From a virus (lineage: Duplodnaviria; Caudoviricetes), in IMG/VR virus record IMGVR_UViG_3300033994_001593, positions 1 to 61,906 of that record: 61,906 nt of DNA. The stretch is one strand, 5' to 3'. Numbering within the stretch: the stretch's first letter is position 1; every line of letters starts with the position of its first letter. A program made the position numbers and the translations under genes. A model generated the notes under the pieces. It was given only the letters and a program-made list of their open reading frames with translations. It was not told where the DNA came from and did no database searches. Shown here in pieces: positions 1 to 61,906 of the stretch.

Positions 1-186
1 CAGGAGCGGGCCATATAGACATACGGGGGTCTGGTGGGGGGTGACGGGGTGTGTGTGTTGTCGTAACTCGTTTGCCCGTCTGGGTTTCCGTCGTGTCTGT
101 TGGAACCAACAGACCAACAAGCACGGCAATCGCTAGGGTATGGGGTGCCGACCGCCACGGCGACAAGCGCGGCCGCCACCTTCGAG

Positions 187-235
187 TCAACTAAGTTGAG
201 AGAGTCAACTAAGTGGATCGGCTCAACTTATTTGA
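187..235. repeat. Three imperfect 13-bp palindromes at 18-bp period
   Basis: TCAACTAAGTTGA (187), TCAACTAAGTGGA (205), TCAACTTATTTGA (223). Confidence 0.85.
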
Positions 236-251
236 TTGCCACGGCCAGCGC

Positions 252-290
252 AAAAAGAAAGCCGCGGCGCCGTTGCCAGCGCCGCGGCTT
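252..290 (-). terminator. Rho-independent terminator
   Basis: 12-bp stem AAGCCGCGGCGC/GCGCCGCGGCTT followed on - strand by a T-rich tract, just downstream of ORF 308..1177. Confidence 0.8.
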
Positions 291-307
291 GCGAGTGTCA
301 CCCGCGC

Positions 308-1177
308 CTAGTGTGCAGGGTAGACAACGTCGATATGAGCCAGGGCGCACGCCGTGCAGGAGCCACACTTCGCCCGCTGGCGCCACGCTTCAACGTCCGC
401 GGCCGACCGCCCCGCTTTCCCGGCTTTCGTGCGGGAGATGAAAGACACGCGAACCGCGGGGCATACGATCGTCTTTCGCCCGGTACGCTTCGCCCACGCG
501 GCCGCTGCCGCTGCCGCCGCTTCAAGAATGCGGCGGCGCTTGTGCGCCCCCTTCCCGACACGCTCGCCAGCGGTGAAAGAACACGCCCCCGCGGGGATAG
601 GATGCGCGGCGATGGTGTCGGGATTCATGTCGGGCGTCTGGATCGATTCGCGAACGACTACAAGCCCGTTCAACTGCTCACGATAGAAAGCCGCTTTCTC
701 TGCGCTCTCTACCGGAAGGTGGCAGGGAGTTCCGGCATTCTTCAAGAAAGAAAGCAGAGCGCGAACGCGCGGAATGAAAAGACGATCGGCCAGCGCGGCC
801 GCCGGTTTGGGCAGCGCGCCGTTGGTGGAGAATCGAAACCACGGGCGCGGCGGTCGGCCGTGCATTTTCTCGCGCTCTAGTTCGTGCAGCGCTTTCGCGA
901 CGATGGCAGAAGCGGGCGCGGCTTCGTGCCGATCTAGTTTGTCTTTCAACTGCACGCGATCATGTCGGTTTTCGACCACGATCGCATAGCAGATACCATC
1001 GCGATCGGCACCGGCCGGGAAGTGTGCAGGATGGTGTCGGCAGCCTAGGTCACAGTTCGCGCCGCCGCTGCGCCCCATGTTCAAGCTGGCGGCGCCGGGA
1101 ACTCCCTTGGAAAAACTCCCAAGTACTGGCGCCCCGAACTGCTCGAGCGGCTGGAATGTTTCGGTCTGCATTGTCAT
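308..1177 (-). CDS. Cys-rich metal/Fe-S-binding protein, gp88-like
   Basis: ATG 1177 with GGGAGAG immediately upstream; CxxxC...CYA near N-terminus, CPA...CGSCTAC near C-terminus; followed by terminator. Confidence 0.6.
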   Translation of the reverse strand: MTMQTETFQPLEQFGAPVLGSFSKGVPGAASLNMGRSGGANCDLGCRHHPAHFPAGADRDGICYAIVVENRHDRVQLKDKLDRHEAAPASAIVAKALHELEREKMHGRPPRPWFRFSTNGALPKPAAALADRLFIPRVRALLSFLKNAGTPCHLPVESAEKAAFYREQLNGLVVVRESIQTPDMNPDTIAAHPIPAGACSFTAGERVGKGAHKRRRILEAAAAAAAAWAKRTGRKTIVCPAVRVSFISRTKAGKAGRSAADVEAWRQRAKCGSCTACALAHIDVVYPAH

Positions 1178-1329
1178 CTCTCCCGATAGGTATGTCGGCC
1201 GGTCACAGTTGCCGATCGACAACAGAAGTATATTCGATATCGGCCAACGCAACAGCCGTACACAAGGGAAAACACACTCGCACCAGGCCACCGCCAGGGC
1301 GCCGTCTCGCGCACGACGAGCCGTCATGG

Positions 1330-1380
1330 TCGGAGTCGGGGTCGGGGTCGTGATGGAGTCGTGGTCGTGATGGAGTCGGG
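1330..1380. repeat. Short tandem repeats
   Basis: GGTCGTGATGGAGTCG at 1346-1361 and 1363-1378, preceded by GTCGGR hexamers; intergenic. Confidence 0.7.
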
Positions 1381-1391
1381 CCGCGACACAC

Positions 1392-1595
1392 TCACGCGCG
1401 CTGCACAACCTGGGCGGCGATGTCGCCGGCGGTGTTGGTGATCGTGTCGCCCGACATGAAGCGAGCGATGGCGATTGCCGCGGCAGCGCTGCTCGCCTGC
1501 TCCCCTTGCGCAACCGCAAGCGCAGCCGCCGGATACTCCCGCTCCAAGTACCAGCCAACGGCCTTGGTGAATTCAGCGTAGGTCTGCGGTTTCAC
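1392..1595 (-). CDS. Hypothetical protein
   Basis: GTG 1595 with GGAGAA RBS; 67 aa, Ala-rich. Confidence 0.55.
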   Translation of the reverse strand: MKPQTYAEFTKAVGWYLEREYPAAALAVAQGEQASSAAAAIAIARFMSGDTITNTAGDIAAQVVQRA

Positions 1596-1633
1596 GGGGG
1601 TTTCTCCGGTGTTTTGGAATAAGTGAACGGACG

Positions 1634-1662
1634 TTGATCGAATATTCGATAACGGGTATAAA
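1634..1662 (+). promoter_or_regulatory. sigma70-like early promoter with overlapping palindromic operator
   Basis: TTGATC-N17-TATAAA; perfect palindrome ATCGAATATTCGAT at 1637-1650; AT-rich divergent gap. Confidence 0.7.
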
Positions 1663-1704
1663 TGAGGGGGTTCCTTTGAGTCCATCCCAAACAGGAGACA
1701 TGAG

Positions 1705-2169
1705 ATGACGTTTGAAGAGTGGAAGAGCGGCCGGACGAGCGATGTGAATCACGACGCGATCTTTGAGATTGGCGAGGCGCACCTTTGCGGTGACTTCGCC
1801 GCCGCCGAAGCGGTCGAAGTGTTCATCTACGATGACGCTGCCGTGTTCAAGTTGAGGGACGGCACCTACTACAACACCGCGGACGATGGACTCTCTCTCA
1901 CGCTGGAGGCTGCGGAGTGCGCGGCGTTCGCGGGGCTGGAGCGCGAGCGGGCGCGGAGGAGTCAGCCCAAGGCAAAGACCACCGACGCCTACACGGTCGG
2001 CAAGTACACGACCGAAGGGGGCGGCGTGACCGTGACGCTGCGGTTCAACGGCCACGGGGGCGTGTTGCTTCGCCACTTCTCAGGCAACCAGGGCGCAACC
2101 AAGGCAGAAGCGTATGCCGCCACGCTCCAGAGGGTGGCCGATGTTCTGAACGGCGCCAGCGAAGAGTGA
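1705..2169 (+). CDS. Hypothetical early protein (paralogue of 3164..3643)
   Basis: AGGAG RBS; shares MTFEEW...LxDGTY...TLE with 3164..3643. Confidence 0.8.
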   Translation: MTFEEWKSGRTSDVNHDAIFEIGEAHLCGDFAAAEAVEVFIYDDAAVFKLRDGTYYNTADDGLSLTLEAAECAAFAGLERERARRSQPKAKTTDAYTVGKYTTEGGGVTVTLRFNGHGGVLLRHFSGNQGATKAEAYAATLQRVADVLNGASEE

Positions 2170-2240
2170 GATTGAGCGACCGCGGAATGGCCGCGGTCAG
2201 GATCGATACTACTAGACCTACCCAAAGGGAGAAGAAAGCA

Positions 2241-2885
2241 ATGACCACTGCAACGACAAGCGGCTGGAAGGTTCAAGAGGGATTCGGCCCGCTCACCGAT
2301 GACATCACGAAGTGCTGGGGGATGCGAAGCACAAAGCGCACGTTCACCTGCATGATCGAAGCCGAAGCGTACAGCGAGCAACTGTACGAGCGCCGCGTTC
2401 GACAGGTGATGAAGAGCGACCCCGACGATTGGCAATCCTACTGGACGCGCGTCATCCAGGTCGGGACGCCTACGCCCGAAGCGGTGATCTATTACGCGGT
2501 TTACGAGTCCGACAATGCGAAGGGATACGATGCGGATTACGAACCCTGCGAGTCGAAGGAGGAGGCCATTCGCGAGGCAACCGGCTACCTGAGTTTCGCG
2601 AGCGGCCGGAACGATGTCGTGTATGTGGTCGCCGTACCGGAGTCGATGTGCGTGACCGACAACGAGGAGTGGTCGCTCTGGGATTGCTTGGGTGAGATCG
2701 AAGCCGACCCCGCTTCGGAGTTCATCTACCTCCACCGCGGCCGCGAGCGACTGTCCGATATCCAAGACACCGACATCGTGGCCGACTTGCGGAGCCTGGC
2801 CGACGATGAAGATGACACGCTGGGGCTGCTGCTCAAGCGGGCGGCCGACGAGATTGAGCGGCTGCGTGGCACCACCAAGAAGTGA
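2241..2885 (+). CDS. Hypothetical acidic early protein
   Basis: ATG 2241 after AAAGGGAGA; ends ...AADEIERLR. Confidence 0.8.
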   Translation: MTTATTSGWKVQEGFGPLTDDITKCWGMRSTKRTFTCMIEAEAYSEQLYERRVRQVMKSDPDDWQSYWTRVIQVGTPTPEAVIYYAVYESDNAKGYDADYEPCESKEEAIREATGYLSFASGRNDVVYVVAVPESMCVTDNEEWSLWDCLGEIEADPASEFIYLHRGRERLSDIQDTDIVADLRSLADDEDDTLGLLLKRAADEIERLRGTTKK

Positions 2886-2904
2886 TGCTGGTGTGATCGA
2901 TAGA

Positions 2905-2926
2905 ACCAACCCGAAGGGAGACTGAC
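2905..2926 (+). repeat. 22-bp start-associated direct repeat, copy 1
   Basis: ACCAACCCGAAGGGAGACTGAC, identical to 3141-3162. Confidence 0.95.
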
Positions 2927-2927
2927 C

Positions 2928-3137
2928 GTGACTGAAAAGAAATTCCTGGTGCGCTGGGCCAATGGCGAGGCCACCACCCTAACCCTTACCCATATCCAAG
3001 AGCGATGGGATATGGACTACACCAACGACGAGGATGACGAATACGAAGAGACTCTGGGCGAGTGGCTCGACGCCGCCGATGTCGGTGACGAGTTCGTCCA
3101 CCAAGATGACCGTGAAGTTTTTATCCGAACTGAGTAG
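2928..3137 (+). CDS. Small very acidic protein
   Basis: GTG after GAAGGGAGA; D/E-rich 69 aa. Confidence 0.8.
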   Translation: MTEKKFLVRWANGEATTLTLTHIQERWDMDYTNDEDDEYEETLGEWLDAADVGDEFVHQDDREVFIRTE

Positions 3138-15850: not shown

Positions 15851-16797
15851 TACCAATCACTCCCTTCTTCGAGCATGTAACGCGGACAATACAGCTCATG
15901 GATTTGCCCGTAGTCCTCGGGCGTCCAACAGTCCCACTCCTTGCGGCGTTGGATTTCGTTAAGCAGGGCGAGGCAGCGGCGCCGGCCCCTGGCGACGATA
16001 ACGTCGGGCAGTCGTGCCACATGGCAGTGGTACGGCTCGACCGTCGAGCAGATGATGAACACCATCGAGTGCGGTTCCCACCCAGCGGCAACCGCAGCCT
16101 CGCCGTAGAACGCGGCCTGGATGTCATAGCGCCACTTGCGGACGCTTGAGTGAAACGTCCACCGCGGATCTACATCGGAGGTGGTCTTGAAGTCATAGAT
16201 GAACTTCTCGGTCGCACCGTCGCACCGAACGCGACAGTCGTGGCCGTGCCACTTCCACGCGATGTTGAACTCGCGATCAACCGTGTCATCAAGGATGCGA
16301 CGAGCGGCGCCGTTGTTCAGAATCTGCCGCGTCTGATTCCACAATTTGTTGTGGTCAGAAGGCGAGATAGCCATCACGCCTGGAGGCAGAGTCTTTATGT
16401 ACTCCTTCGCCTCTTTGCCAACCTGTCCGGTGACCGTCAGCTTCTCGACGGGGATCGGCTTGACGTTTTGCCAGAACAGGCCGTCGCCAAGTTCACCCCA
16501 TTGGTGGAGCAGCGTCCCGAATGAGAGGGCTTCGCTACTTTTGGGGGGGGCTATCCCCTTAACGTACCTGCGGTAGAATGCCGCTGGAGAGAGCGCAAGC
16601 TCTTTGAGTTGGGAGGACGAGATTCCTGGTCGAGCGTGGTATTCCTCGTTCGAGCAGTGATCGATGACGCAATCAGAGTATTCAATAGCAGCGGCCGGAC
16701 TTGAACCGGCGACACCCGGCTTATGAAGCCGGGTGTCGATCTCGACTGCTATCGCTTCCTCTGTTGCGTCAGGCTGGGAAGCCCTGACGCTAGGCAT
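15850..16797 (-). CDS. Exonuclease VIII-like PD-(D/E)xK nuclease (DUF3799-like)
   Basis: YHA..GISSSQLK, FGTLLH, RCD...DFKTT, YDIQAAFY; TAAGGAG RBS at ATG 16797. Confidence 0.9.
   Translation of the reverse strand: MPSVRASQPDATEEAIAVEIDTRLHKPGVAGSSPAAAIEYSDCVIDHCSNEEYHARPGISSSQLKELALSPAAFYRRYVKGIAPPKSSEALSFGTLLHQWGELGDGLFWQNVKPIPVEKLTVTGQVGKEAKEYIKTLPPGVMAISPSDHNKLWNQTRQILNNGAARRILDDTVDREFNIAWKWHGHDCRVRCDGATEKFIYDFKTTSDVDPRWTFHSSVRKWRYDIQAAFYGEAAVAAGWEPHSMVFIICSTVEPYHCHVARLPDVIVARGRRRCLALLNEIQRRKEWDCWTPEDYGQIHELYCPRYMLEEGSDW
16685..16752 (-). other. Truncated tRNA(CAT)-like element lacking a D-arm; candidate attP core
   Basis: Anticodon arm CCGGC-TTCATAA-GCCGG, T-arm GCCGG-TTCAAGT-CCGGC, acceptor-like ATAGCAG/CTGCTAT; ~200 bp from the integrase. 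Confidence 0.75.
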
Positions 16798-16945
16798 TAT
16801 CCGCTCCTTACTGGGGTGGTTCTACTAGTGAGGGGGCGAACCGCTCGCCGTTATCCCCTCAAGGTGCCGGTGCTTTCCTGTGTGACCGACAGGATTGTCA
16901 GCCACGCTACCTAGTTGCATGGACGCCCACGCGGGAGTCGAAGAA

Positions 16946-17821
16946 ATGATCGCAACCAGAACGGCACAATCTTTTACCAACGAGATGACCCTCCTTGATT
17001 TACTAGACCGCTATATGGCGGCCGTCGAAGTCAGTCCGCGGTATCGAGAATCCCTTCTCCGGACGGTTCGACGGGCCAAAAATAGCGGCCTCAAAGAAAC
17101 CTGTCAACTAACGACAGAAGAAGTGAACAAGTTTCTCGCGGGCCTGAGTGTCGGCCAGACAACAAGGCACAATATCCGCCGGGAACTACTGACACTTTGG
17201 CGGTTCGCCCACGACCGGGGGTTCGTTGAGGAGTACCCGACCCGCATCCGGAAGATACGGGCGACGTTCGCCACCCCGGTGACATGGGAGCTGACGCGGC
17301 TCTCCCAAATCATTGAGGCGGCAGAGGGCGACGAGACGCCCATCAGCTCAAGGATTCGCCTTGGGCGGTGCGATGTGATCCCAGCCTGGGCTGGCTTGGC
17401 CTATGACTCTGGGATGAGATTCAGCGACATTCACAACCTGACGAAACGCAGCTTCCGAAATGACTGCGTTGCTGTCACAGCATCGAAGACCGGCAAGCCG
17501 CTGGTGCGTGTGCTTTCGGAGCGGACGCAGCATGACGTTGCCAAGCTCTTCATGCATAGTCCTGACGGGACGCTCTTCAAGTGGCTGCTGCCCAGGCGGC
17601 GAGCCTTCCACATGTGGCGGGCGTTCTTGGACGAGCATGGGTTCGGTGGATCCACGAAGTGGTTCAGACGAGCTGCCGCCACCGCGATCGAGCAGCTCAA
17701 GCCTGGAGCCGCCACCGACTTCCTTCAGCACTCGCATCCATCGTTAGTGAGGCGCCATTACCTTGACGCCACCCAGGCTGCGATCCCGATGTCGCCGCCC
17801 CCGATCCGGAAGCCGAGGTGA
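16946..17821 (+). CDS. int: Tyrosine recombinase / integrase
   Basis: GMRFSDI (R), KTG (K), KWFRR (R), LQHS (H), RHY (Y); start uncertain (16946 or 16985). Confidence 0.88.
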   Translation: MIATRTAQSFTNEMTLLDLLDRYMAAVEVSPRYRESLLRTVRRAKNSGLKETCQLTTEEVNKFLAGLSVGQTTRHNIRRELLTLWRFAHDRGFVEEYPTRIRKIRATFATPVTWELTRLSQIIEAAEGDETPISSRIRLGRCDVIPAWAGLAYDSGMRFSDIHNLTKRSFRNDCVAVTASKTGKPLVRVLSERTQHDVAKLFMHSPDGTLFKWLLPRRRAFHMWRAFLDEHGFGGSTKWFRRAAATAIEQLKPGAATDFLQHSHPSLVRRHYLDATQAAIPMSPPPIRKPR

Positions 17822-24974: not shown

Positions 24975-25853
24975 CTAGCGGAAGACGGCAGCCTGCACGA
25001 TGCCGGAGTCATAGGTTGCGGAGCCGGGGCCATTTACTGCCAGAACGCGAAGCTGGCCGACTGCCCATGGCACGCACTCCAGGCGACCGCCAAAGGTGGT
25101 GCCAGCGATGCCGGAGCAACCGCCGACCCCGGCGAAATTCGTATCCGGCATTGCTGTCGAAAAGTTGATCATGTAGTCGCCTGTCGCCACGCGAGAGACA
25201 GAAGTGACGTTTCCGCTCGCGCGAATAGCAGGAGTCCCGGTTCCGTTGAAATTCACCCAAGCCCTGCACTGAAACTGCGGCAGGAGCGTCGAGCCGCCGG
25301 GGATCACCGACTGCGTTGCCCCGTCCGCACCAACCCGCCAACGCTCAACGCCGTTGGTCGCCACGCTCAAGGTGTTCGGGCTACTCGCCGCCTGCATGAT
25401 GCCGGTGTCAGTGTCGCCAGAGATCGCCACCCCCGGCGCACCGGCATTGCCTGCAAGTGCAACCAACTGCCCGGTCATCGTACCGCCCGCCCGCGCGAGG
25501 TAGTCGGTGGCAGTGGCCTGCGCCATCGTGCCAAGGCCCAGCGAGGTGCGCTGTGCTGCGGCATCCGCCCCCGTCATCAGCGCGCGCCCCGCACTGGTGG
25601 AGTCGCTGATCTCTGCCGATGGGTGGGCGTGGCTGGCCGGGGCCGCACCAATGTCCGCTGGCGCAAGCGCGACCTTCGATGCGGTCACGGCACCGCTGGC
25701 GATCTTGGAGGTCGTGACGCTTGAGTCCGCGAGGTCTGCCTCGACCACGGCACCGGGAGCGATCTTCGCCGTGGTGATAGACGAGTCAGCGATCTTCGGC
25801 GTCGTGACGCTGGAGTCGGCAAGCCCGTCAGTCGTGATGCGTGTGCGTGTCAT
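24975..25853 (-). CDS. Tail fibre protein
   Basis: ADSSVTTxK repeats, GGTMTG, GDTDTG, C-terminal RAWVNFNG domain. Confidence 0.8.
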   Translation of the reverse strand: MTRTRITTDGLADSSVTTPKIADSSITTAKIAPGAVVEADLADSSVTTSKIASGAVTASKVALAPADIGAAPASHAHPSAEISDSTSAGRALMTGADAAAQRTSLGLGTMAQATATDYLARAGGTMTGQLVALAGNAGAPGVAISGDTDTGIMQAASSPNTLSVATNGVERWRVGADGATQSVIPGGSTLLPQFQCRAWVNFNGTGTPAIRASGNVTSVSRVATGDYMINFSTAMPDTNFAGVGGCSGIAGTTFGGRLECVPWAVGQLRVLAVNGPGSATYDSGIVQAAVFR

Positions 25854-25866
25854 GTGTCTGTCGCTT

Positions 25867-26055
25867 TCATTCGGCGGGCGGCGTCAGCCCCAGCCGCTCG
25901 CATTCCGCCTGCCATTCCGCCTTGTTTATGGTCTGCAACAGGAGAGTCCACTGCGGCCCAGCCGAAGTCACCTCGTCGGGCATGGTCACGCCAGCGACCG
26001 GCTGACCGCCCGCCGTGATGATCCAATAGGTCGGCTTTGCCGGATACTCAATCAC
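25867..26055 (-). CDS. Small tail-associated protein
   Basis: GTGA overlap with the DUF285 gene. Confidence 0.6.
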   Translation of the reverse strand: MIEYPAKPTYWIITAGGQPVAGVTMPDEVTSAGPQWTLLLQTINKAEWQAECERLGLTPPAE

Positions 26056-27404
26056 GCTGGCCCCCCGTCCGTAATCACCCAGCCGTAGGTGTTGATGAGC
26101 GTGTCGCGGGCCGCAGCCGCTTCGGGCAAATATTTCACGCTCGCGCCGGGATCAAGAACGACGTTCCGGCTGCGTCGGTGCCGCATGGTTCCGGTGGCTT
26201 CGTTTGCCACAAACGGAACGGCGATGTCAAAGACGTTGGTGGCGGCAACAGCCAGCACGTTGTAATCGCCGTTGTAGTTTGTTGTGCCGTCGATACGCAC
26301 GCGCGAGCCGACTGCGAGTCCGTGCGCAGAAACGGTAACGCGAGTATTCGCCCCTTGCGCCGAGTAGGCCAAGATCGGCAGATTGCGCAGGTCTTCGTCG
26401 GGAAGCGCGGCCCACGCAATCAGTGCTGCACTGTAGTTCGCGTTGCCCCACTGCGACGTAAATGACGAGGAGAGTGTAATCACGCGGCGAATGTCCCAGT
26501 TGGAAACGTCTTGGTTGTAATTACTGTTGACGAACATCTGATCCATCGAAACGACGTTCGATAGGTTCCAGCCGTGAAGCGTCTGGCGGAATGATGTTGC
26601 GCCGGAAAACATGGTGCGCATATTGGTGGCGCTAGAAGTGTTCCAGCCGCCGATCTGCTGATTAAATGAAGTGGCGCTGACGAACACCCCGTTCAACAAT
26701 GCCACGCCTTTCGTGTCCCAGTTGCCGATAGGTTGATTAAAGGCGGTGCAGCCTTGGAATACGTTTTGCAAAGAGCCGACGCGGCTTATATTCCAGTTGC
26801 CGATTGGTTGATTGAACGCAGTGCAACCAAGGAAAATGCCGTTTATCGCGTTTAGGTTCGATGTGTCCCAAAGGCAAACATTTGGGTCGTTGAACGCGGC
26901 GCAGCCTCCAAACGCAAAGGCTAGAGAGGAAACACTGGGCGGGAGTGTGGGTGGGCATTCCACAAAATTCACGCAATTTCGGAAGGCATCCTGACAACTG
27001 ACTAAACCAATGACGCCAAACGACAGGCATCGCACCAACTTTGATCGGTTGTTGGTGGTGCTTGCGCTGTTGCCATAGTTCAGTGTTCCCATATTTCCGC
27101 TAATCTGCACCACATAGATGCCCGGCGCAGCGTAGGTGTGCGTCTTGAATCCAGTGGTGGTGTGAGCCTCGCTGGAACCGTCGCCCCAATCGATGACTAC
27201 GTTTGGCGAGGTGCCAGAGATTGGCACTGAAATCTGTAGGCTCGCCGGTTCAAGCGAAGTGTCATAGACCAGCGTGAGATTGCTGGGGTCGTAACTGAAC
27301 CGCTGCTTCTTCCCTCGCGGCGTCGTAACGGGCGCGGGCTTTCCCAGCAATCCTCGCGGCATTGCGGGCGGCGCGTATTGCGATGATTGAATGCCGTTGT
27401 TCAC
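26052..27404 (-). CDS. PKD-like plus BspA/DUF285 repeat protein, putative receptor-binding
   Basis: IDWGDG...HTY...G.Y.V.I.G; repeats FxxxxxFNQPIGNWD/N; GTGA coupling. Confidence 0.85.
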   Translation of the reverse strand: MNNGIQSSQYAPPAMPRGLLGKPAPVTTPRGKKQRFSYDPSNLTLVYDTSLEPASLQISVPISGTSPNVVIDWGDGSSEAHTTTGFKTHTYAAPGIYVVQISGNMGTLNYGNSASTTNNRSKLVRCLSFGVIGLVSCQDAFRNCVNFVECPPTLPPSVSSLAFAFGGCAAFNDPNVCLWDTSNLNAINGIFLGCTAFNQPIGNWNISRVGSLQNVFQGCTAFNQPIGNWDTKGVALLNGVFVSATSFNQQIGGWNTSSATNMRTMFSGATSFRQTLHGWNLSNVVSMDQMFVNSNYNQDVSNWDIRRVITLSSSFTSQWGNANYSAALIAWAALPDEDLRNLPILAYSAQGANTRVTVSAHGLAVGSRVRIDGTTNYNGDYNVLAVAATNVFDIAVPFVANEATGTMRHRRSRNVVLDPGASVKYLPEAAAARDTLINTYGWVITDGGPA

Positions 27405-27784
27405 AGGTCGGCGGCGAGTGCCGTTACATGCGTGGCCTGCGCGATGGATGTGGTCACGCGAACAGACCATGACGAGGATGGAAGGATCAGATTGTCATAG
27501 GTGCGGGTGACGCGAGTAGTCGCGACCGTATTTGACGAGGTGGCAGCGGAGATCGTCACCTCGTCAAACAGGAATGTGCTGGTGCCGTCATGCAGAAAGA
27601 CGCGCACGATTGCGGCAACAGAGGTGGCGGCGCACTTCACGACCAATTCCGCCACGCGAGTTCCGGCGGCAACTCCGGTGATGACGGTTCCGAAGTTGGT
27701 CGGGGCCGTGAGGCTTGTGTCCTGAGTGCTGATTGAAACGCTGCCGATACGCGGCGTGACTGCAAACGAAGGGGAGGTAGCCAT
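27401..27784 (-). CDS. Tail-associated beta-rich protein
   Basis: Ser/Thr-rich, TAATG coupling within the fibre cluster. Confidence 0.7.
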   Translation of the reverse strand: MATSPSFAVTPRIGSVSISTQDTSLTAPTNFGTVITGVAAGTRVAELVVKCAATSVAAIVRVFLHDGTSTFLFDEVTISAATSSNTVATTRVTRTYDNLILPSSSWSVRVTTSIAQATHVTALAADL

Positions 27785-29757
27785 TAGCGGAAGGTACTCC
27801 AGAGATAGAGGTTGACGGCGGCGCGTGCGTTGTCCGAAAGGCGCGAATCAGAGAGTGTGCCAGAGGTCAGATCGCTGGCGTTGGTGCTTCCGCTGGTGAC
27901 GGTTTTCCAAGTTTGATCGCCAGCGAGGAACGTGGTGGAGGTGGCCGAGCCGCTGCCGAGCCGGGCCGTGGCGATTACACCGCTCTGAATCGCACTTGCG
28001 TCATGCGTATGAGAGAGAGGCGTGCGAGCATCCGACAGGCGGGCATCATTGCCGATGCAGACGCTACTGGCATCGCTGCCAGTTGGAATTCGGGAAATGT
28101 CTAACTCCCCCGAAACAATGTCCATCGCGTTATGCGCATGTCCGGAGGCGGCTTTCTCTGACAGTTGCACCTCCAAGCCCGTCACTTCGCTGATCATGTG
28201 ACCGTGGACGGCGGCGGCGTATGAGCCGCTTGGCTGCTTGGAATTCAGCGCGGCCTGCAAGCCAGTGGTGTCGGCAATCACATGCTGATGCGAGGTCGCG
28301 GCCTTGGCATCGAGCAACGATTGCACCGCAGACACGGCGCGGGTGTTCGTGAAATAGAGATTGGTGCTGCCTTCGGCAATCGCGTCGGTCGAGCCGGGGG
28401 AGGCGACGATCTCGACATACTGCGTTCCTGCCCACCGATAAATCTTGCCGTTGTTGATCGTGAGGTACAGTTTCCCCTCTTCACCGCTTGTGGGCAGAAG
28501 GGATGCGTTGTCCACTTCGATCACATCATCAACGTAGGACGGCAGTTGCGTGGCTGGCACCTTGCCGCCGACGAGCGTGGCGTAATCACCAGCGGTCTGC
28601 TTGTTGTCGAGGGCCGCTTGCAAGCCAATGATCGCGGAGATGCCGTGATTGTGGACTGACTGTGCGTAGGAACCGGAGGGCTGCTTGGAATCTAAAGCCG
28701 CCTGCAACCCAGTGGTGTCGGCAATCACATGGGAATGGACGGTCGCAGCGTAGGAACCGGCGACTTGCTTCCCGTCCAACGCTGCCTGCAAGCCATCGAC
28801 GGCACTGATTATGTGGGTGTGTACCGCATTAGCGTATGAGCCAGTGGGCTGCTTGCCGTCGAGTGCGGTCTGTAGCCCGTTGACCGTCGAGATCGCTTGC
28901 TGCCCAGTGTGCGTTGCGCGATCCCGCAGTTGAGCGTCGGTCGCGTTGGCCGTCGCCCCGCTCGCGATGCCGTCGAGTTTCGTCTTGTCGGAAGACGCAC
29001 CCCACCATGCCTCGATTGCGGATCGCACCACCGCATAGGCCAGCCACCGCGAGGCGGTTGGATCGTAAGTGATCTGGATCGCGCTGTTGACCGGGATCAC
29101 AACATCGCCCCCGGTGGGCGAGATCACGCGATTGGGTGCCGCCGACAGGGTGGATTGGTGTGCGATGGTGATGGGGAACGAGCCGACGTTATGCAGCGTG
29201 ACCGACGAGCCTGCCGATGCGACGAAGCCGGTGATCGTGCGCGGCGCATCCGACGAGAGGCGGGCGTTGTTCGCGCCCACCGACAGAGCGTAGTTGTTCT
29301 GGTCGGAAGTGATCGTGGTCGGTGAGTGGAAGGCCGCAGCGGAACCCGCGAGGTACACACCGAAGAATGCGTCAGTCGCCGCCGGGGCCGCGGCAAACGT
29401 GATCTGCGAGCCACTCACCGTGTAGGCCACTTCCGGCTGTTGCGTCACGCCGTTGAGCATGACGAGCAGCGAGGCTGCGGTGGCGGGCGTGACCGAAGTT
29501 GTGCCGATGACGAGATCAAACGTCGTGGTCGAGCCATTGAACGTGAGCGAGTTGAGAGTTCGGTTGAGGGCCGACGCGCCGCCAGAGCCGCCCACGCCAC
29601 CCACGATGTACGGCAGCGAGTTGTATGCAGTGGTGCCGTCACCAACCTTCAACTTGTTCGTGTCCGTTTCAAATACGATCTGCCCCGCCAACGGGACTTC
29701 GTTGGCTGCGGTCAGGGCGGCAAGGGTGCCGCGTCGTTGTTGGACAATGGGGGGCAT
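27784..29757 (-). CDS. Long tail fibre protein
   Basis: Mtd/hyaluronidase-like N-terminus (RRGT...ETDT..LKVGDG); HxH...GLQxALDxKQ repeats; 23-bp DNA repeat at 28262 and 28709. Confidence 0.85.
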   Translation of the reverse strand: MPPIVQQRRGTLAALTAANEVPLAGQIVFETDTNKLKVGDGTTAYNSLPYIVGGVGGSGGASALNRTLNSLTFNGSTTTFDLVIGTTSVTPATAASLLVMLNGVTQQPEVAYTVSGSQITFAAAPAATDAFFGVYLAGSAAAFHSPTTITSDQNNYALSVGANNARLSSDAPRTITGFVASAGSSVTLHNVGSFPITIAHQSTLSAAPNRVISPTGGDVVIPVNSAIQITYDPTASRWLAYAVVRSAIEAWWGASSDKTKLDGIASGATANATDAQLRDRATHTGQQAISTVNGLQTALDGKQPTGSYANAVHTHIISAVDGLQAALDGKQVAGSYAATVHSHVIADTTGLQAALDSKQPSGSYAQSVHNHGISAIIGLQAALDNKQTAGDYATLVGGKVPATQLPSYVDDVIEVDNASLLPTSGEEGKLYLTINNGKIYRWAGTQYVEIVASPGSTDAIAEGSTNLYFTNTRAVSAVQSLLDAKAATSHQHVIADTTGLQAALNSKQPSGSYAAAVHGHMISEVTGLEVQLSEKAASGHAHNAMDIVSGELDISRIPTGSDASSVCIGNDARLSDARTPLSHTHDASAIQSGVIATARLGSGSATSTTFLAGDQTWKTVTSGSTNASDLTSGTLSDSRLSDNARAAVNLYLWSTFR

Positions 29758-30326
29758 TAGAGCGAGCCGCAGTCGATGACGATGTTGCTGTTGAGTTTCG
29801 CCGCCGTAACGCTGCCGTCAGTCGGGGTGCGTTGATCGGAGAGCCGCGTGTCCGATCCGATCACCACCTGTGTGCTTGTGGCATTGCCCACCGCAGGAAC
29901 GTCACGGGTGGCGGCGGTGCCAGCGTCGGTGATCGCTGAAACGGTGTGCTGGTGAACGAGAGCCGCCTTGCCGTCGAGGGCCGACTGCAATCCATCGACC
30001 GCGCTGATCGTGTGCTGATGGACGAGCGGGGCGTAAGCGGCAGCGAGGGTGCTGTTGAGATCAGTGATCGCGGCGACGGTGTGGGTGTGGACGAGTTGAG
30101 CGTATGACCCAGCCGACTGCTTCCCTGCGAGTGCTTCGGTCAAGCCCGCCACATCCGCGATGGCGATGTCGTTGTTGATGTACCCCAGTGAATTCCACGG
30201 GGTAATGCCGTCGCCAACCTTCAATCGGCTGGTGTCGGTTTCAAAGACAATCTGCCCAGCCGCTGGCGTCTCGTTCGCAGCGGCGAGGGCGGCGGCGGTG
30301 CCGCGGCGCTGCTTAAAGACGGCCAT
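29757..30326 (-). CDS. Short tail fibre protein (paralogue of 27784..29757)
   Basis: Same N-terminal module and HxH repeats. Confidence 0.8.
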   Translation of the reverse strand: MAVFKQRRGTAAALAAANETPAAGQIVFETDTSRLKVGDGITPWNSLGYINNDIAIADVAGLTEALAGKQSAGSYAQLVHTHTVAAITDLNSTLAAAYAPLVHQHTISAVDGLQSALDGKAALVHQHTVSAITDAGTAATRDVPAVGNATSTQVVIGSDTRLSDQRTPTDGSVTAAKLNSNIVIDCGSL

Positions 30327-30329
30327 TGG

Positions 30330-30677
30330 CTACTCCTCGATGGCGGCTTTCCGCACGGCGTATTCGGTCGAAAGGGCGGCTCGATGCGCACCGTATGCCA
30401 GCATCAACGCGGTCAGCTCCGCGAGCGTAAGCGTGTGAGGAACGCCGGCCGTGTCGATCACGGGCGGGAGCGGTAGGTCGGCGGCAGAGGCTTCCTTGGC
30501 GAGAACGAACTGCCCGGTGAGCAGCGTCACATCGCTCTCTGCGAGGCCCATCTTCCACCCGCTCGCTGTCGTGAAGCCCTTGGCGACTTCACTTCGGAAC
30601 CACGCATCCACGGCTGCAAGTGCCTTAACGCGGTCGATAGCGGCCTTCTTGGCGGGGTCAACGGTGACAAGTCCCAT
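30330..30677 (-). CDS. Tail fibre assembly-like protein (DUF4376-like)
   Basis: AGGAG RBS, TAATG coupling; H.LTLAEL..L pattern. Confidence 0.6.
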   Translation of the reverse strand: MGLVTVDPAKKAAIDRVKALAAVDAWFRSEVAKGFTTASGWKMGLAESDVTLLTGQFVLAKEASAADLPLPPVIDTAGVPHTLTLAELTALMLAYGAHRAALSTEYAVRKAAIEE

Positions 30678-30940
30678 TACTGATTCTCCTGTGCGGCGCG
30701 TTCTGCAAACCAAGCGTCCGGCCCGATTCCGTAGCCATCCGGCTCGGAGAAGTCAGCAACCCATGCGTCGATATAGGCACGGTCTGCGGGAAGGTCGGCG
30801 TTGTTCGCGATGATGTATGGCTTGCCAGCCGGAACGTCCTTGCGAGCAATCTCTTCGACGGGGATGCCGCAGTCGGCGGGAATGACCATCACCAAGCCGC
30901 CATTGTCGTTCGGGTAGAAGATCGTCTTGTCCACTGTCAC
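30677..30940 (-). CDS. Tail fibre-associated small protein
   Basis: IARKDVP.G.PY...LP.DR...AW motif. Confidence 0.7.
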   Translation of the reverse strand: MTVDKTIFYPNDNGGLVMVIPADCGIPVEEIARKDVPAGKPYIIANNADLPADRAYIDAWVADFSEPDGYGIGPDAWFAERAAQENQ

Positions 30941-30941
30941 C

Positions 30942-31889
30942 TCACATGAAGACTGCGGCAGTCCATCGGTAAGCGTCTAGGAAATCGCCGCCAGCGAGGA
31001 AATTTCCGCCAGCATTGAACGAGTAGGTGGTGCATTGCACCCAGTTGGCATCTAGGCTGCCGAATCGGAAAATAAGGTCTGCCTGACTGTTAGTGCTTCC
31101 CACTACAGAGTAGGCAGTGGTAGGGGAGCCGCCTCGCTGCATCGGAACGATAAAGTTCATTAAATAAACGCCAGCGGACTGCCGTGTAATTGACGTTACG
31201 TTGGCAGACGCATGCATGAAGTTGGACTCGGCCTGCACCCACGCCCTGCACATGAAGGCAGGCAGCAATCCAGAGTTCGCGTAACTCGACGCGATGACGG
31301 CAGTGGTCTGAGGCTGCGACCCTATGTGACCATCCGCGAGAACGCGAAGCCGCTCCGTTCCGTTGGTCACCAGCGACAGTGTGTCGGCACCACCCAGCCT
31401 CGCGATGCCGGTGTTCGTGTCGCCGCTAAACGAATAAGAGGGCGCGGTCGCCGTGCCGTCGCCCGTCAGCACTTGACCGGCAGCGGTCACGGTGCCGGTG
31501 ACAACCACGTTGCCATTCGCCGTGACGGTGCCGGTGAACGTCGGCGTGTCGTTGATCAAGCCACGGGCAGCGTTGCCGTCAGCCGCCGCCAGAAGGCTGC
31601 GAGCAAACGAGGTGCAGGGGATTTCCTGCACCGTGCCGCTTGAGCCTGACGAGCGACCTAGCACCCGGTCGCCTGTGACGTTTTGGATTTTGGGATAGGT
31701 GACCGCACCGGACGCGATCTTCCCCTCGGTGACAGTCCCGTCGCCGGGAGGCCCGCCCCCAATCGCCGCGATCTGCGCGGCGGTGGCCTTGCTCGTCTGC
31801 GTCAGCGCCGCATCCACGATCGGGATGATGTCGTTCGGCTGGACGCTCGAGATCGCGGGCAGCTCGGAAATCTTGACGGGATCGGCCAT
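30942..31889 (-). CDS. Tail fibre protein
   Basis: VKISELP N-terminus, APSYSFSGDTNTG, C-terminal RAWV domain paralogous to 24975..25853. Confidence 0.8.
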   Translation of the reverse strand: MADPVKISELPAISSVQPNDIIPIVDAALTQTSKATAAQIAAIGGGPPGDGTVTEGKIASGAVTYPKIQNVTGDRVLGRSSGSSGTVQEIPCTSFARSLLAAADGNAARGLINDTPTFTGTVTANGNVVVTGTVTAAGQVLTGDGTATAPSYSFSGDTNTGIARLGGADTLSLVTNGTERLRVLADGHIGSQPQTTAVIASSYANSGLLPAFMCRAWVQAESNFMHASANVTSITRQSAGVYLMNFIVPMQRGGSPTTAYSVVGSTNSQADLIFRFGSLDANWVQCTTYSFNAGGNFLAGGDFLDAYRWTAAVFM

Positions 31890-31961
31890 CAGCTCACCTT
31901 GTGAAGGGACATTGTGTCGCCGGCACCCCTGCCTTCGTCAGCAGGATTTGGGGCGGTAGGG

Positions 31962-33290
31962 TTACGCCATTCTCCCGGCGAGCTGGCGGATGATGTCAGT
32001 CGTTTGACCAGGCTGCGCCTGCGGCTGGGGCTGCTGCATCGGGGGCTGGGCGGGGGGCATTGGGGCGGGCTGCTGCACCGGCGGCCGCTGCAACTCACGC
32101 AGCCTCTCGCGGGAGAGGATGTTGATCTGGACGGGCTGGCCGCCTTGGCCCTGCTGAGAAGGCTGGCTTGGTGCCGGCTGCTGCGGCTGGGCCTCACCAA
32201 AGGCGGCCCCATACAGATTAGATAGGCCCCGGTAGGCCATCGGAATGCCGTAGCGAGCCGTGAGGCCAGCAACCGGAAGGCCGACAACAGTAGCAGCCGT
32301 TGACACTCCTGGGTACTTCCGGAAGGCTCCCGCCACGGCAGAAGGCGCCGCTGCGACCGCCCTGACGATTGGATCTGTCTTGGACACAGAAGCCGCCCAG
32401 TTCTGGGCCTTCTGGTCTGCCGCGCCATCCACCTTTTGTGCGACCTCATCCTTAGTGGCTGGCTGAATGCCAGGGCTGGCTGGCTTCGCTGGCTCGGCCG
32501 GCTGCGACTTAAAGACCGGCCCCCGCTCGCCTGTCATGTCTTCGGCGGTGAGTTTCGACCAATCGCCCTTGCTGGCGTCCTTGCCAACGATCATCGGATC
32601 GCGGTTCGCCCCATTCCACTCAATGCCCTCCAGGCTGCCGGTTTCCTTGACCTTCGCGACGTTGGCCTTGGACGCCTCCGAAGCTTTGAGGCGGGCGGCC
32701 TTCTCTGCGGAGATCTTCCTCTGTGAGGGCTGCGGCACGACCGGAGGCACCTCCCCAGGCGTGGCTCCCATCGGAGCGTCAGCCCTGGCGGTTTCTTCGC
32801 CTGGGACTCGAGACTCGACGGCATCGCTGGCATTGGGATCCTTGCCGCGGATTCGGCTCGGCCTGCTGGCGCCTTCCTTGATGCTCGAGTCAGTCTCTCG
32901 GAGCTGCTTGAGGCTCATCCCCAGCATCTGATCCGGCGTGTAGCCGTAGTTCGACGCGCCGATGGACTCCATCAGCTTCAGTTTTTCGTCATCGATGAAC
33001 TGCTTTGCGGTCGAGTGCGGGTCTTCGGCAAGAAAGATCGACTTGATCTGGCTGTTGGAGTAGCCGGCATCTTGGAGCTGCGGGATGTACTCTTCATCCA
33101 GTTGCCTTGCGGCAACGGAATCGACGCCGAGCTGGTTGCCACGCTCCACCCAATCGACCGCTTTGGCCTTGTCTGGAGCGCCACCACCGCCGACCGAACG
33201 AGCCTTTGGCGCGTCGGCCTTGGAGGCGGCCTTACCTGCGTTGGCTGCTGCCTTTTGCGCGTTCTTCGCTGCTGCACCGGGATTAGCCAC
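31962..33290 (-). CDS. Putative internal virion protein
   Basis: GAGG RBS; Ala/Lys-rich N-terminus, hydrophobic segment, Pro/Gln tail ending TDIIRQLAGRMA. Confidence 0.7.
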   Translation of the reverse strand: MANPGAAAKNAQKAAANAGKAASKADAPKARSVGGGGAPDKAKAVDWVERGNQLGVDSVAARQLDEEYIPQLQDAGYSNSQIKSIFLAEDPHSTAKQFIDDEKLKLMESIGASNYGYTPDQMLGMSLKQLRETDSSIKEGASRPSRIRGKDPNASDAVESRVPGEETARADAPMGATPGEVPPVVPQPSQRKISAEKAARLKASEASKANVAKVKETGSLEGIEWNGANRDPMIVGKDASKGDWSKLTAEDMTGERGPVFKSQPAEPAKPASPGIQPATKDEVAQKVDGAADQKAQNWAASVSKTDPIVRAVAAAPSAVAGAFRKYPGVSTAATVVGLPVAGLTARYGIPMAYRGLSNLYGAAFGEAQPQQPAPSQPSQQGQGGQPVQINILSRERLRELQRPPVQQPAPMPPAQPPMQQPQPQAQPGQTTDIIRQLAGRMA

Positions 33291-46959: not shown

Positions 46960-47464
46960 CGATGGTTCTCCCTTGGAAGGCAGACAGGGCCTGCTCAAAT
47001 CTCTTGTTCAGCTCTTCCTCCAGCTCCTCCTCTGTCCAGAGCGTGAGAGGCTTCTTGGCGCCGCCGGAATCGACGTTCTTTGTGACCATCCGGCAGATCG
47101 TCTCGAGCAGCCGGTTGCGGGCTGACGAGCCAGGAGCAGAGTCCCAGTACTGCTTGACCAGCACGGCCGCCATGCCGCCCGTGCCGCCGAAGTACTGGAA
47201 GATCCGCTCAATCACCTCGGCGGTGTGCGGGATGTTGGAGCCGCCCTTGGAGGCAGAGCGAAGGAACAGATCGACGCCCGCCTCTTCGATCGCCTTGAGC
47301 GTTTCCTCCCGCTTGAGGGCCGCCCGATCCTTGCTCTCCTTCCGCTGCCTCGCCCGACAGTGGAGGCACTCGGCCGTGAAGATCTCGAGATCCTTCCGCC
47401 AACGGAAGTGCTGCTTATCCAGCGGGAAGGTGTTGCCGCAGACGTTGCACGTTCGCTCTTCCAT
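46748..47464 (-). CDS. Putative terminase small subunit with N-terminal zinc finger
   Basis: CNVC...CLHC; directly upstream of TerL; ATG 6 nt after a -10 box. Confidence 0.6.
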   Translation of the reverse strand: MEERTCNVCGNTFPLDKQHFRWRKDLEIFTAECLHCRARQRKESKDRAALKREETLKAIEEAGVDLFLRSASKGGSNIPHTAEVIERIFQYFGGTGGMAAVLVKQYWDSAPGSSARNRLLETICRMVTKNVDSGGAKKPLTLWTEEELEEELNKRFEQALSAFQGRTIDVRPAEALPEPEEEAPEGESAPSAEHPDDLGVPARKPQRAAKRAARAEDRGPAPLQGEPAAGGDPQVPSE

Positions 47465-47470
47465 GACCGG

Positions 47471-47500
47471 ATGATAAGCGGGGCTTTGCACGGTATGTCA
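47471..47500 (-). promoter_or_regulatory. Putative late promoter
   Basis: TGACAT-N18-TATCAT; same architecture at 50421 and 56235. Confidence 0.65.
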
Positions 47501-47507
47501 TCAAACG

Positions 47508-47542
47508 AAGCCGGCCCGAAGGTTCACCCCTCGGGCCGGCTT
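47508..47542 (-). terminator. Terminator after capsid genes
   Basis: 12-bp stem AAGCCGGCCCGA/TCGGGCCGGCTT, then CGTTTG on - strand. Confidence 0.7.
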
Positions 47543-47567
47543 ACTGGTTCTTGATGACCTCCAGCGG

Positions 47568-48143
47568 TCAGATCTGGCTGCTGTGGAGGTTGACGCGGGT
47601 CAGGCCGACCGAGGCGGCACTGTTCGCACCAGCGATCTGCTGGCCGATGACCGTGCCGGTCGTGGCGGCGACCGCCGAGCCAGCCGTCGAAGAAGCCTGG
47701 ACGGCGGCACCGGCGTTGATCGCGGCGGCCGTCTGCTTCACCTGCGTCGGCCCCTTGACCACCAGCCAGACGATGTCGTTCTGCCGCAGTTCGCCGGTCA
47801 GGTACTCATCGAGGACGCCGACAGAAGCCCCGGCCGCATGGGTCGAGGTGGTCAGCTTGCTGGTGACCTCCGACAGGGGCTTGCCCGCGTCGAAGAGGTA
47901 CAGCTCGCCAGCCACCGTCGAACCGTCCGACACGCTGGCACCCTTGTAGCGGGCGGCCACGCAGTAGACGAGCCGGTTGCTGTACCGCTCACCCGTCGAG
48001 GGGTGAACGTCTTGAAAGACCTTGACCTGACCGACGATCTCGCCACCGGCCACCGGGAGGCCAGCCGGATCGGTTTCGATGGCCTCACCGCCCAGGAGCG
48101 TCGTGCCACGACGGAAACTCGGATCGCTGAAGATGCTCGACAT
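47568..48143 (-). CDS. Capsid decoration/cement-like protein
   Basis: Immediately after the MCP; Ala/Gly-rich; GGAG RBS. Confidence 0.65.
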   Translation of the reverse strand: MSSIFSDPSFRRGTTLLGGEAIETDPAGLPVAGGEIVGQVKVFQDVHPSTGERYSNRLVYCVAARYKGASVSDGSTVAGELYLFDAGKPLSEVTSKLTTSTHAAGASVGVLDEYLTGELRQNDIVWLVVKGPTQVKQTAAAINAGAAVQASSTAGSAVAATTGTVIGQQIAGANSAASVGLTRVNLHSSQI

Positions 48144-48167
48144 GACTTCGTTTTCTCCGGAGAGGGA

Positions 48168-54672: not shown

Positions 54673-55583
54673 TACTGCGTGAGTCCTTTGAGGATGTGGC
54701 TGACGGTTGGGACGCTCCACGAATTGCCGAGCGCCTTATATCGCTGGTAGTCGGACACGCCTTCGGTGTACCCCTGCGGGAAGCCGAACAGGCCCTCAAT
54801 CTCCTGCGGCGTCATCCTGCGGAATGAGCCGTCCTCCAGTTGCAGGGCGTTGTACGGGACTCCCTTGCGAATCACGCTCGGGATGGTGCGGGCCTTGGGG
54901 TCATTGATGTGGAAGCCGTGCTTCTCAAAGTGCGTTCGGCCGTCTGGCGCTTGTCGGTTGAGGTAGGCCACGCCCTTCGGGGAGATCTGGTACTTGTCGG
55001 GTACGGAGCTGAGCAGGGCATCGCGGAAAATCGCCTGCGACGGCGAGTACTCACCAACCGGGATGTTCGTCCAGAACGCCCGCGGCCTCGCCATCGCCCC
55101 GAAGTCCTTGGCGTCGAGAAACACCGGATCGACACCGAGAGCCTTGGAGATGACCTCAATGTTCTTGTCGCCCTTCGACCCTCGCGGCACCACGTTCTCA
55201 ACTAGGAAGTGCTTGGGCTGGAATTCGTCCAGCATCCGCGGCACCTCCCAGAACAGGCTCGACCGCTCACCATCCAGACCCTTGCCCGTGACGTTCGCCC
55301 TGGAGAGGTCTTGGCAGGGAAAGCCAGCACAGAGCAAATCTGCGGATCCATCCGCTCGAGACGCCGACCGCACGTCGCCCAGGTGCTGAATGTCGGGATA
55401 GTTCTTGGCTGCGATGGCGGCGGCCTTGGGGTCGTTTTCGTAGGCGATGTACGAACCAACCGGGATGCCAGCCCCATCCAAGGCGGCCCTGGCACCGGCA
55501 ATTCCATCAAACCCAGATACAACCTTGATCGGCCGCTGGGCGTTCTTGGCCGCCTTGGCAATGCTATTCGGATTCGGAGCCAT
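54672..55583 (-). CDS. DNA cytosine-5 methyltransferase
   Basis: FDGIAG, GFPCQD, ENV, RPR, ALGNS. Confidence 0.93.
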   Translation of the reverse strand: MAPNPNSIAKAAKNAQRPIKVVSGFDGIAGARAALDGAGIPVGSYIAYENDPKAAAIAAKNYPDIQHLGDVRSASRADGSADLLCAGFPCQDLSRANVTGKGLDGERSSLFWEVPRMLDEFQPKHFLVENVVPRGSKGDKNIEVISKALGVDPVFLDAKDFGAMARPRAFWTNIPVGEYSPSQAIFRDALLSSVPDKYQISPKGVAYLNRQAPDGRTHFEKHGFHINDPKARTIPSVIRKGVPYNALQLEDGSFRRMTPQEIEGLFGFPQGYTEGVSDYQRYKALGNSWSVPTVSHILKGLTQ

Positions 55584-61543: not shown

Positions 61544-61906
61544 GCCTGTCCAGTATCCGGCTCTGTCAAATGCAACAACGAAAAAACTGGGTGGGCCGGC
61601 CAAAGCCTCCCCGCAGCTCGAGACTGAAGGGGAGGGAACCCGCGGAGATGGCGAGCCGGTTTATCAGTCCGGTGCCGGCCACGGGTACGGTCGCAAGCAT
61701 CCGACCGCAGCTCGCACCGAGGTAGCGATCCCCGGTGTGCCTACACCTACCAGCGGGCCTTGCATTGCCCAGAGTGGGTCTGCCGCAGGGGGTGCCTGTT
61801 CAAGCGTATAGGCTCGCCTCTGACGGGTCAACCGCGGCGGGGGTGTCGAGATAGCCTCGGGGGCCGAACGGGCGGCAGAGGGCCAGCCAGGAGGCCCATT
61901 TGCAAA

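Follow-up and report, generated by a model that had tools for sequence, protein, structure and literature searches.

A terminal segment free of CCTC/GAGG in the genome of an uncultured lake phage: a compositionally distinct module beside a probable cos site

Introduction

The absence of restriction targets from the phage DNA that enters a cell first can decide the sensitivity of the phage to restriction. According to two reports, this applies to the first-step-transfer DNA of T5 with respect to EcoRI and to Murciavirus with respect to the type I system Mme2I; in phages of this type, the polarity and stepwise entry of the DNA, the host enzyme and the early protection have been shown by experiment (PMC12455610; bioRxiv 10.1101/866236). 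Here we analyze the left end of a Caudoviricetes genome, the IMG/VR record IMGVR_UViG_3300033994_001593 (61,906 nucleotides (nt), all of which is referred to as the window). Its first 1.66 kb contains neither CCTC nor its complement GAGG and carries two leftward genes, here called P0002 and P0003. MnlI cleaves at CCTC(N7/6). According to a further report, MnlI-type systems and a CCTC-specific C5 methyltransferase exist (PMC3411764).

The window resembles the T5/Murciavirus-type genomes in that the word is absent from a terminal segment of ~1.7 kb but occurs 725 times elsewhere, and in that the genome is probably fixed-ended. Unlike those phages, this one looks temperate, its terminal segment is enriched in other short palindromes, its relatives lack the hole, and it is known here from sequence alone. 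Avoidance of restriction at the leading end is thus a mechanism of a known kind, which is matched here by the site distribution only, with fixed ends being likely.

Three other kinds of described systems are relevant to this locus. Morons and mosaic modules of temperate phages are autonomous promoter-gene-terminator units with atypical composition and are often found near genome ends. The left segment is like a moron in having an upstream motif for each gene, a terminator, transcription opposite to that of its neighbours, a position at the end and a deviant composition, but P0002 has conserved counterparts in more than 100 related sequences and lies at the same place in two relatives, L097 and L098; it is therefore not a recent one-off insert. 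As in phages with cohesive (cos) ends, both ends of the record abut a conserved 13-nt piece that is carried by relatives whose contigs span the junction; unlike defined cos genomes, the present one is known from contigs, one of which bridges the junction. Like the radical S-adenosylmethionine (SAM) enzymes QueE, Cfr and spore photoproduct lyase, the model of P0002 resembles a partial alpha/beta barrel, with three invariant Cys near the N-terminus, but their spacing is Cx3Cx16C instead of CX3CX2C, there is no Pfam match, and the structural Z score is at most 6.2. Among phage families, its language-model neighbours are GP88 and DUF7227, the latter weakly matched by 3 of 26 family members.

Results

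CCTC/GAGG is absent from the left 1.66 kb

CCTC/GAGG occurs 725 times in the genome (CCTC, 362; GAGG, 363) and not once in positions 1-1663; the first GAGG lies at 1664 and the first CCTC at 2729. The original prediction that no such site precedes 1664 was confirmed, as was its companion statement that CTGA/TCAG is missing before ~1573 (first TCAG at 1573, first CTGA at 2146). The G+C content is 0.622 in this segment vs 0.618 elsewhere. Sliding windows of 1663 nt hold 19.6 CCTC/GAGG on average (standard deviation 6.1), which bears out the ~20 sites originally estimated for a null model of composition only, and the next-lowest non-overlapping windows hold 7. Since sites are present as far as 61891 at the right end, the hole begins at the first base of the record. 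It ends in a divergent control region just ahead of position 1705, where the first rightward gene, P0001, starts and from which the density of sites is normal.

Among 4-6-mers with at least 20 occurrences, CCTC/GAGG shows the most improbable gap genome-wide (log P -12.9, Poisson). Comparable gaps are found away from the ends: CCWGG at 25079-32008 (6929 nt, 17.1 sites expected), AGCT at 25051-30415 (5364 nt, 16.5 expected) and CCAA/TTGG at 47399-49158 (1759 nt, 15.5 expected). The last one lies over the capsid gene region; large word holes therefore also arise in the interior of the genome. We further took 300 random points as anchors and recorded, over 136 words, the largest expected count inside a hole extending downstream. 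The median was 6.3, the 99th percentile 13.9 and the maximum 16.2, while the left end gave 19.5. Clearly, the word hole is not ordinary noise.

The probability of the hole varies with the null model chosen. A local dinucleotide model expects 12.6 sites (P 3e-6), a local trinucleotide one 6.0 (P 0.0025, or 0.0032 when simulated); the trinucleotide P fails correction for 136 words. Overall, codon-aware and local models lowered the expected count to about 6-11.

The left segment is a compositional island

The 4-mer chi-square distance of the segment from the genome is 459 (median of windows 171, 95th percentile 302), second only to a region at ~26 kb, and is still 439 without CCTC/GAGG. GCGC occurs 31 times against a mean of 6.3 (z 7.2), CGCG 28 times against 10.7, GAAA/TTTC 22 times against 7.9 and CTAG 5 times against 1.1. 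Two further words reach their genome minimum here: CTGA/TCAG (1 vs 10.2, standard deviation 2.7) and GGAC/GTCC (2 vs 10.0). Genome-wide, GCGC and CTAG are the most avoided 4-mers (observed/expected 0.52 and 0.53), whereas CCTC/GAGG stands at 1.11; 35 of the 264 GCGC sites fall within the first 2 kb. The richness in GCGC, CGCG and CTAG means that this end is not free of restriction-type words in general, and the broader claim of a restriction-site-free end was not supported. With many unrelated words deviating and with sharp borders, at the start of the record and at the divergent control region at ~1664, the segment is a compositional island or mosaic module.

Two other left-end holes extend past the module: CCGAG/CTCGG (207 genome-wide) is missing from the first 3861 nt, and CTCGGC/GCCGAG (83 genome-wide) from the first 8021 nt. 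The most 4-mer-deviant part of the genome, with chi-square values up to 524 near 26.2 kb, is the region 25051-32008 that lacks AGCT and CCWGG. It contains tail-fibre genes and is therefore probably a swapped host-range module.

Codon usage accounts for part of the depletion in P0002

P0002 uses CTC for 1 of its 19 Leu codons (genome, 392 of 1040), and GAA and GAG 7 times each for Glu (genome, 207 and 589). When the gene was recoded with the codon usage of the genome, 7.26 sites were expected and none of 5000 recodings was site-free. With its own synonymous codons permuted, 2.89 sites were expected and P(0) was 0.019. Codon usage, which had been named in advance as an explanation that would count against restriction avoidance, thus applies in part: it takes the expectation for P0002 from 7.3 to 2.9 and leaves a residual P(0) of 0.019.

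The same tendency was seen in the family. Homologous genes in 23 relatives hold 74 sites, compared to 128.8 expected from the codon usage of the locus and 99.3 from their own codons. In the pooled data of 22 relatives, observed/expected ratios were 0.58 for GAGA/TCTC, 0.59 for AGAG/CTCT, 0.59 for CCTC/GAGG, and 0.63 for both CGAG/CTCG and CTCC/GGAG; all GAG/CTC words were lowered to 0.57-0.69 of expectation. Because they are lowered alike, the depletion in the P0002 family is not specific to CCTC/GAGG. GCGC, in turn, is commoner in the P0002 homologue than in its flanks in most relatives.

Avoidance of Shine-Dalgarno sequences was considered as a cause and rejected: neither strand has its word in the segment, and genes that run leftward in other parts of the genome contain many sites.

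Relatives with the same junction lack the hole

In L097 and L098, the P0002 gene occupies the same place beside the same junction. We counted sites in the first 1663 nt on the P0002 side of this junction and found 12 in L097, 8 in L098, 6 in L094 and 13 in L134; in L139, 14 sites lie within 1512 nt beside it. Relatives sharing the junction hold 6-14 sites and never 0, so the hole belongs to this genome and not to the lineage. Together with the depletion of all GAG/CTC words in the 22 relatives, these counts do not indicate selection on this word in particular. Nor did each relative have a terminal hole of its own for a different word: the best expected counts were 5.2-7.6, compared to the random median of 6.3, with the exception of AGAT/ATCT in L097 (11.8).

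P0002 shows 68-70% DNA identity to its counterparts in L097 and L098, compared to 77-87% for the right-end genes that these genomes have in common. The L098 sequence that separates the P0002 homologue from the shared rightward genes could not be aligned.

The record ends are probably cohesive ends

L097 and L098 show, in this order, the P0002 homologue, the equivalent of window positions 307 to 1, 13 nt, and the equivalent of 61906 downward. The 13 nt (TCYGGAAAAAATC-like) are conserved between the equivalents of 61906 and 1 in six distinct relatives, where they are flanked by conserved CCCnTTTGCAAA and CARGAGSGGGMCATATA, and are absent from this record. The coordinates of the junction are 61895-61906 and 1-17 in the window, 2676-2691 in L097 and 11141-11156 in L098. 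The conserved element at the left end (Table 1) adjoins TCYGGAAAAAATC in L026, L091/L094/L132, L130, L133, L134 and L139. Based on these comparisons, the ends of the record are probably cos ends; the 13 nt could have been lost if the record were a virion-derived assembly of a cos phage whose overhang was removed in library preparation. The proposal that position 1 lies near a physical end thus received indirect support, from a contig comparison in which 13 nt are missing exactly between the record ends.

The evidence on the junction comes from contigs (17 runs, all as contigs), not from raw reads. When they were placed on the window, no pile-up of molecule ends was seen, a signal that contigs would not carry. 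The contig of one relative, G003, ends 47 nt short of the right end of the window, and that of L132 ends 29 nt past the junction. In run X4, a contig extends 1780 nt beyond position 1 and bridges the junction, so a joined form exists too, as is to be expected if the phage is temperate or its DNA was replicating. A mis-assembly or chimera was ruled out, in that an independent contig from run X1 spans 228-2500 with an identical sequence and the order is the same in L097 and L098.

Contigs of many relatives end 130-600 nt downstream of the P0002 homologue. We rejected these ends as physical ones, as they lie inside tandem-repeat arrays, which are typical assembly breaks. Such arrays, with units of ~8 to 70 nt, end the contigs just downstream of the P0002 homologue in L101, L102, L103, L105, L110, L118 and L120. 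Judged from their sequence and place beside the junction, they may be iterons or binding arrays.

Organization of the left module

The features of the module are listed in Table 1 with others in the genome. P0002 and P0003 share an upstream motif of 14 nt, and the copy ahead of P0003 lies inside a perfect palindrome. The repeats at 184..235, between the terminator and the end, are possible protein-binding sites as far as their arrangement suggests; at the equivalent position, relatives have tandem-repeat arrays. No tRNA and no Rfam element was found in the segment, and a consensus scan of 1-2300 revealed no sigma-70-like promoter. In searches, the sole match of P0003 was its own cluster, on 3 contigs. 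A plus-strand open reading frame at 1420-1581, antisense to P0003, would encode a peptide with a lipoprotein-like signal (MKRAMAIAAAALLAC); the gene callers of the source chose the minus-strand frame of 67 amino acids (aa).

Table 1. Positions of features in the window (aa, amino acids; nt, nucleotides)
Feature	Position	Strand	Remarks
Conserved non-coding element near the junction	1..75		CAGGAGCGGGCCATATA ... TTGTCGTAACTCGTTTGC; 76% identity to G005
Two direct copies of GAGTCAACTAAGT and an inverted copy (TCAACTAAGTTGAG / CTCAACTTATTTGA)	184..235		Found by repeat search
Intrinsic terminator of the P0002 gene	259..290	minus	14-bp stem with 11 G-C pairs, then TCTTTTT
P0002	308..1177	minus	289 aa; conserved phage family; 0 CCTC/GAGG
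Shared upstream motif, copy 1	1230..1243		ATATTCGATAnCGG; ~53 nt upstream of the P0002 start
Two tandem 17-nt units	1338..1371		GGGGTCGGGGTCGTGAT / GGAGTCGTGGTCGTGAT; within the 214-nt spacer between P0002 and P0003
P0003	1392..1595	minus	67 aa; GTG start; orphan; 0 CCTC/GAGG
Shared upstream motif, copy 2	1637..1655		Inside the perfect palindrome ATCGAATATTCGAT; ~47 nt upstream of the P0003 start
P0001	1705..2169	plus	154 aa; first rightward gene
tRNA-Met	16686-16759		Directly adjoins the tyrosine integrase
Tyrosine integrase	16895-17821
C5 cytosine methyltransferase	54672-55583	minus
C5 cytosine methyltransferase	59972-61603	minus
Conserved right-end piece	61895..61906		CCCATTTGCAAA; other flank of the missing 13 nt

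P0002 represents a widespread, enzyme-like family

P0002 has 109 homologues, several of them on contigs of 50-76 kb; the closest, with 80-83% protein identity, are on contigs of 60,052 and 11,130 nt. In viral contigs, a single-sequence query with P0002 returned nothing, but an alignment of the family did retrieve loci; the alignment yielded no relative in the species-genome collection. Invariant Cys residues of the family are at positions 42, 46, 63, 239, 271, 274 and 277, forming Cx3Cx16C near the N-terminus and CGxCxxC near the C-terminus. The AlphaFold model of P0002 is confident (pLDDT 90.8) and resembles an alpha/beta barrel. With this model, Foldseek gave no match at E up to 0.001. In a wide structural search, radical SAM proteins ranked at the top: QueE with Z 6.2 (root-mean-square deviation 5.0, 177 aligned residues), and Cfr and spore photoproduct lyase with 5.4 each; these Z values are weak and within the range of common folds. 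The Cys spacing departs from that of radical SAM enzymes (CX3CX2C), and neither their profile nor their motif was found in P0002.

P0002 had no Pfam match at E up to 1, and neither P0002 nor P0003 matched Pfam, PHROGs or NCBIfam, no anti-defence library having been searched. The language-model neighbours of P0002 are GP88 and DUF7227, both of unknown function, and DUF7227 was weakly matched by 3 of the 26 family members. From sequence and model, P0002 appears to belong to an uncharacterised, widespread, enzyme-like phage family related to GP88/DUF7227.

The phage belongs to a large family of lake phages

The record is a whole IMG/VR entry of class linear with a CheckV completeness of 100%. In addition to the genes in Table 1, it encodes a serine recombinase, an Erf/exonuclease pair and a helicase, with the structural genes on the minus strand. 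The phage looks temperate, having an integrase with a tRNA-Met beside it. This region, 16686-17821, is a candidate attachment site and offers a handle toward the host. The specificity of the two C5 methyltransferases was not readable, because solved structures match their catalytic halves only. A terminase was not found by family search: PHROGs and Pfam were empty for the 586-aa and 1420-aa proteins, and sequence searches of the Protein Data Bank were empty as well. A 675-aa protein showed a weak portal match (E 5e-5).

The isolate-phage collection yielded neither DNA nor protein matches for the left end, P0002 or the 586-aa protein. In viral contigs, at least 74 capsid-related loci were found, and the metagenomes that carry the phage are from lake water and freshwater; in 7 runs from lakes, a quarter or more of the words sampled from 1-3000 were present. 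The phage is a member of a large, uncultured and widespread family of lake phages. The contig holding the close relative L097 encodes a capsid protein 90% identical to that of the window. A capsid search of the species-genome collection gave a single contig (L178; 58,302 nt) in a metagenome-assembled genome labelled as uncultured Rubrivivax sp., with a capsid 79% identical to that of the window. The length of this contig is close to that of a phage genome, so it probably represents a related phage that infects a Burkholderiales host or was binned with one.

Discussion

The left 1.66 kb of the window would be best described as a self-contained, leftward-transcribed module beside the probable cos site of a temperate lake-water phage. 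Its parts are the conserved, enzyme-like P0002, the orphan P0003, the 14-nt motif upstream of both and a strong terminator. The module shows word and codon usage of its own, with GCG/CGC, GAAA and CTAG in excess and GAG, CTC and AGG scarce. The codon usage of P0002, its recurrence as a family trait, the compositional island, the presence of sites in relatives that share the junction, the holes elsewhere in the genome and the genome-wide ratio of 1.11 for CCTC/GAGG favour composition as the cause of the hole. We infer that composition plus chance suffices. We give an even chance to the reading that the lack of CCTC/GAGG marks the far end of the codon and word usage peculiar to the module, having arisen as a by-product of mosaic evolution and of codon choices specific to the family. 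Adaptation against a CCTC-cutting enzyme is possible, though not demonstrated.

Several observations weigh against an explanation by composition. The hole exceeds what composition alone predicts, and 0 of the 300 random anchors gave one comparable to that at the left end. In the segment, GAG followed by A, C or T (n=18) and CTC preceded by A, G or T (n=22) are approximately normal, whereas GAGG and CCTC are both 0. All three Glu codons of P0002 that stand before G are GAA. The 793 nt outside P0002, that is, the non-coding DNA and P0003, are also without CCTC/GAGG. Among the 17 homologues whose G+C is 0.58 or more, none is site-free (counts 1-10, mean 5.4 per kb). Finally, the borders of the hole coincide exactly with the probable physical end on one side and with the divergent control region on the other.

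A rival model is that of a phage whose position 1 is ejected first and from whose leading 1.66 kb the target of a host type IIS enzyme (MnlI-like, CCTC) is kept out until the remaining 725 sites come under the protection of an early function. In its favour, the hole is real and tied to the end, cos-like ends would fix the polarity of ejection, and the words of both strands are gone although words one letter away occur and Glu before G is encoded by GAA. The principle is documented for T5 and Murciavirus (PMC12455610; bioRxiv 10.1101/866236) and CCTC-specific MnlI-type systems exist (PMC3411764). However, the hole is not seen in relatives that share the junction and the terminal gene, the depletion in the family spans all GAG/CTC words, and the segment is the richest of the genome in GCGC, CGCG and CTAG. 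No anti-restriction family was found in P0002 or P0003 with Pfam, PHROGs and NCBIfam, no anti-defence library having been searched; both genes run toward the end and carry a control motif of their own, an arrangement that suggests a separately controlled unit rather than an immediate-early operon. Moreover, the two C5 methyltransferases could protect the whole phage DNA, and with many windows scanned a rare hole at an end is expected occasionally. We regard leading-end avoidance as unlikely. Quite improbable is a fuller version, in which the cos end of a temperate phage of a Burkholderiales-like host would be packaged last and ejected first, CCTC-free and nearly free of CTGA/TCAG and GGAC/GTCC, and a Cys-rich, radical-SAM-like gene product would be made first and would shield or modify the incoming DNA.

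The sharp borders of the island, the orphan status of P0003, the unalignable DNA between the P0002 homologue and the shared rightward genes in L098, and the lower identity of P0002 than of the right-end genes to L097/L098 (68-70% vs 77-87%) could also reflect a recent import. A donor phage that avoids CCTC/GAGG genome-wide would then have supplied the module in whole or in part, most notably P0003 and the control region, and the hole would be the unblended signature of that donor. This is distinctly unlikely: the same place and junction in L097 and L098 indicate that at least P0002 is resident, and no site-free, donor-like sequence was found, the high-G+C homologues all carrying sites. Pure chance over an ordinary composition, with no local peculiarity, could be argued from the local trinucleotide P of about 0.003 for one word of 136 and from a scan that spans many windows; the deviation of many unrelated words in the region, the random anchors, none of which matched, and the local dinucleotide P of 3e-6 make it very improbable. 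The two C5 methyltransferases of the phage (Table 1) raise the further idea that one of them, or another phage enzyme, acts at CCTC and that the DNA by the cos and control region must stay unmodified. CCTC-specific C5 enzymes do exist (PMC3411764), but only the catalytic halves of the phage enzymes match solved structures and the relatives lack the hole, so we consider this explanation extremely improbable.

With composition as the favoured cause, the case calls for caution: a common 4-mer can be missing altogether from 1.7 kb of a mosaic module whose codon usage is its own. Before such holes are read as restriction avoidance, local and codon-aware null models, all words, and the homologous segments of relatives should be checked. 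Of greatest use are the junction that is probably a cos site, the conserved family of the terminal gene and this lesson on null models. If the hole were adaptive, it would mark the polarity of ejection and an unrecognised early protective gene in an uncultured family of lake phages, and would back the recent view that restriction acts mainly on first-injected DNA. If the fuller version of the leading-end reading were true, avoidance would no longer be confined to virulent phages of the T5/T7 type but would reach a new temperate lineage and involve a protective enzyme of a new kind.

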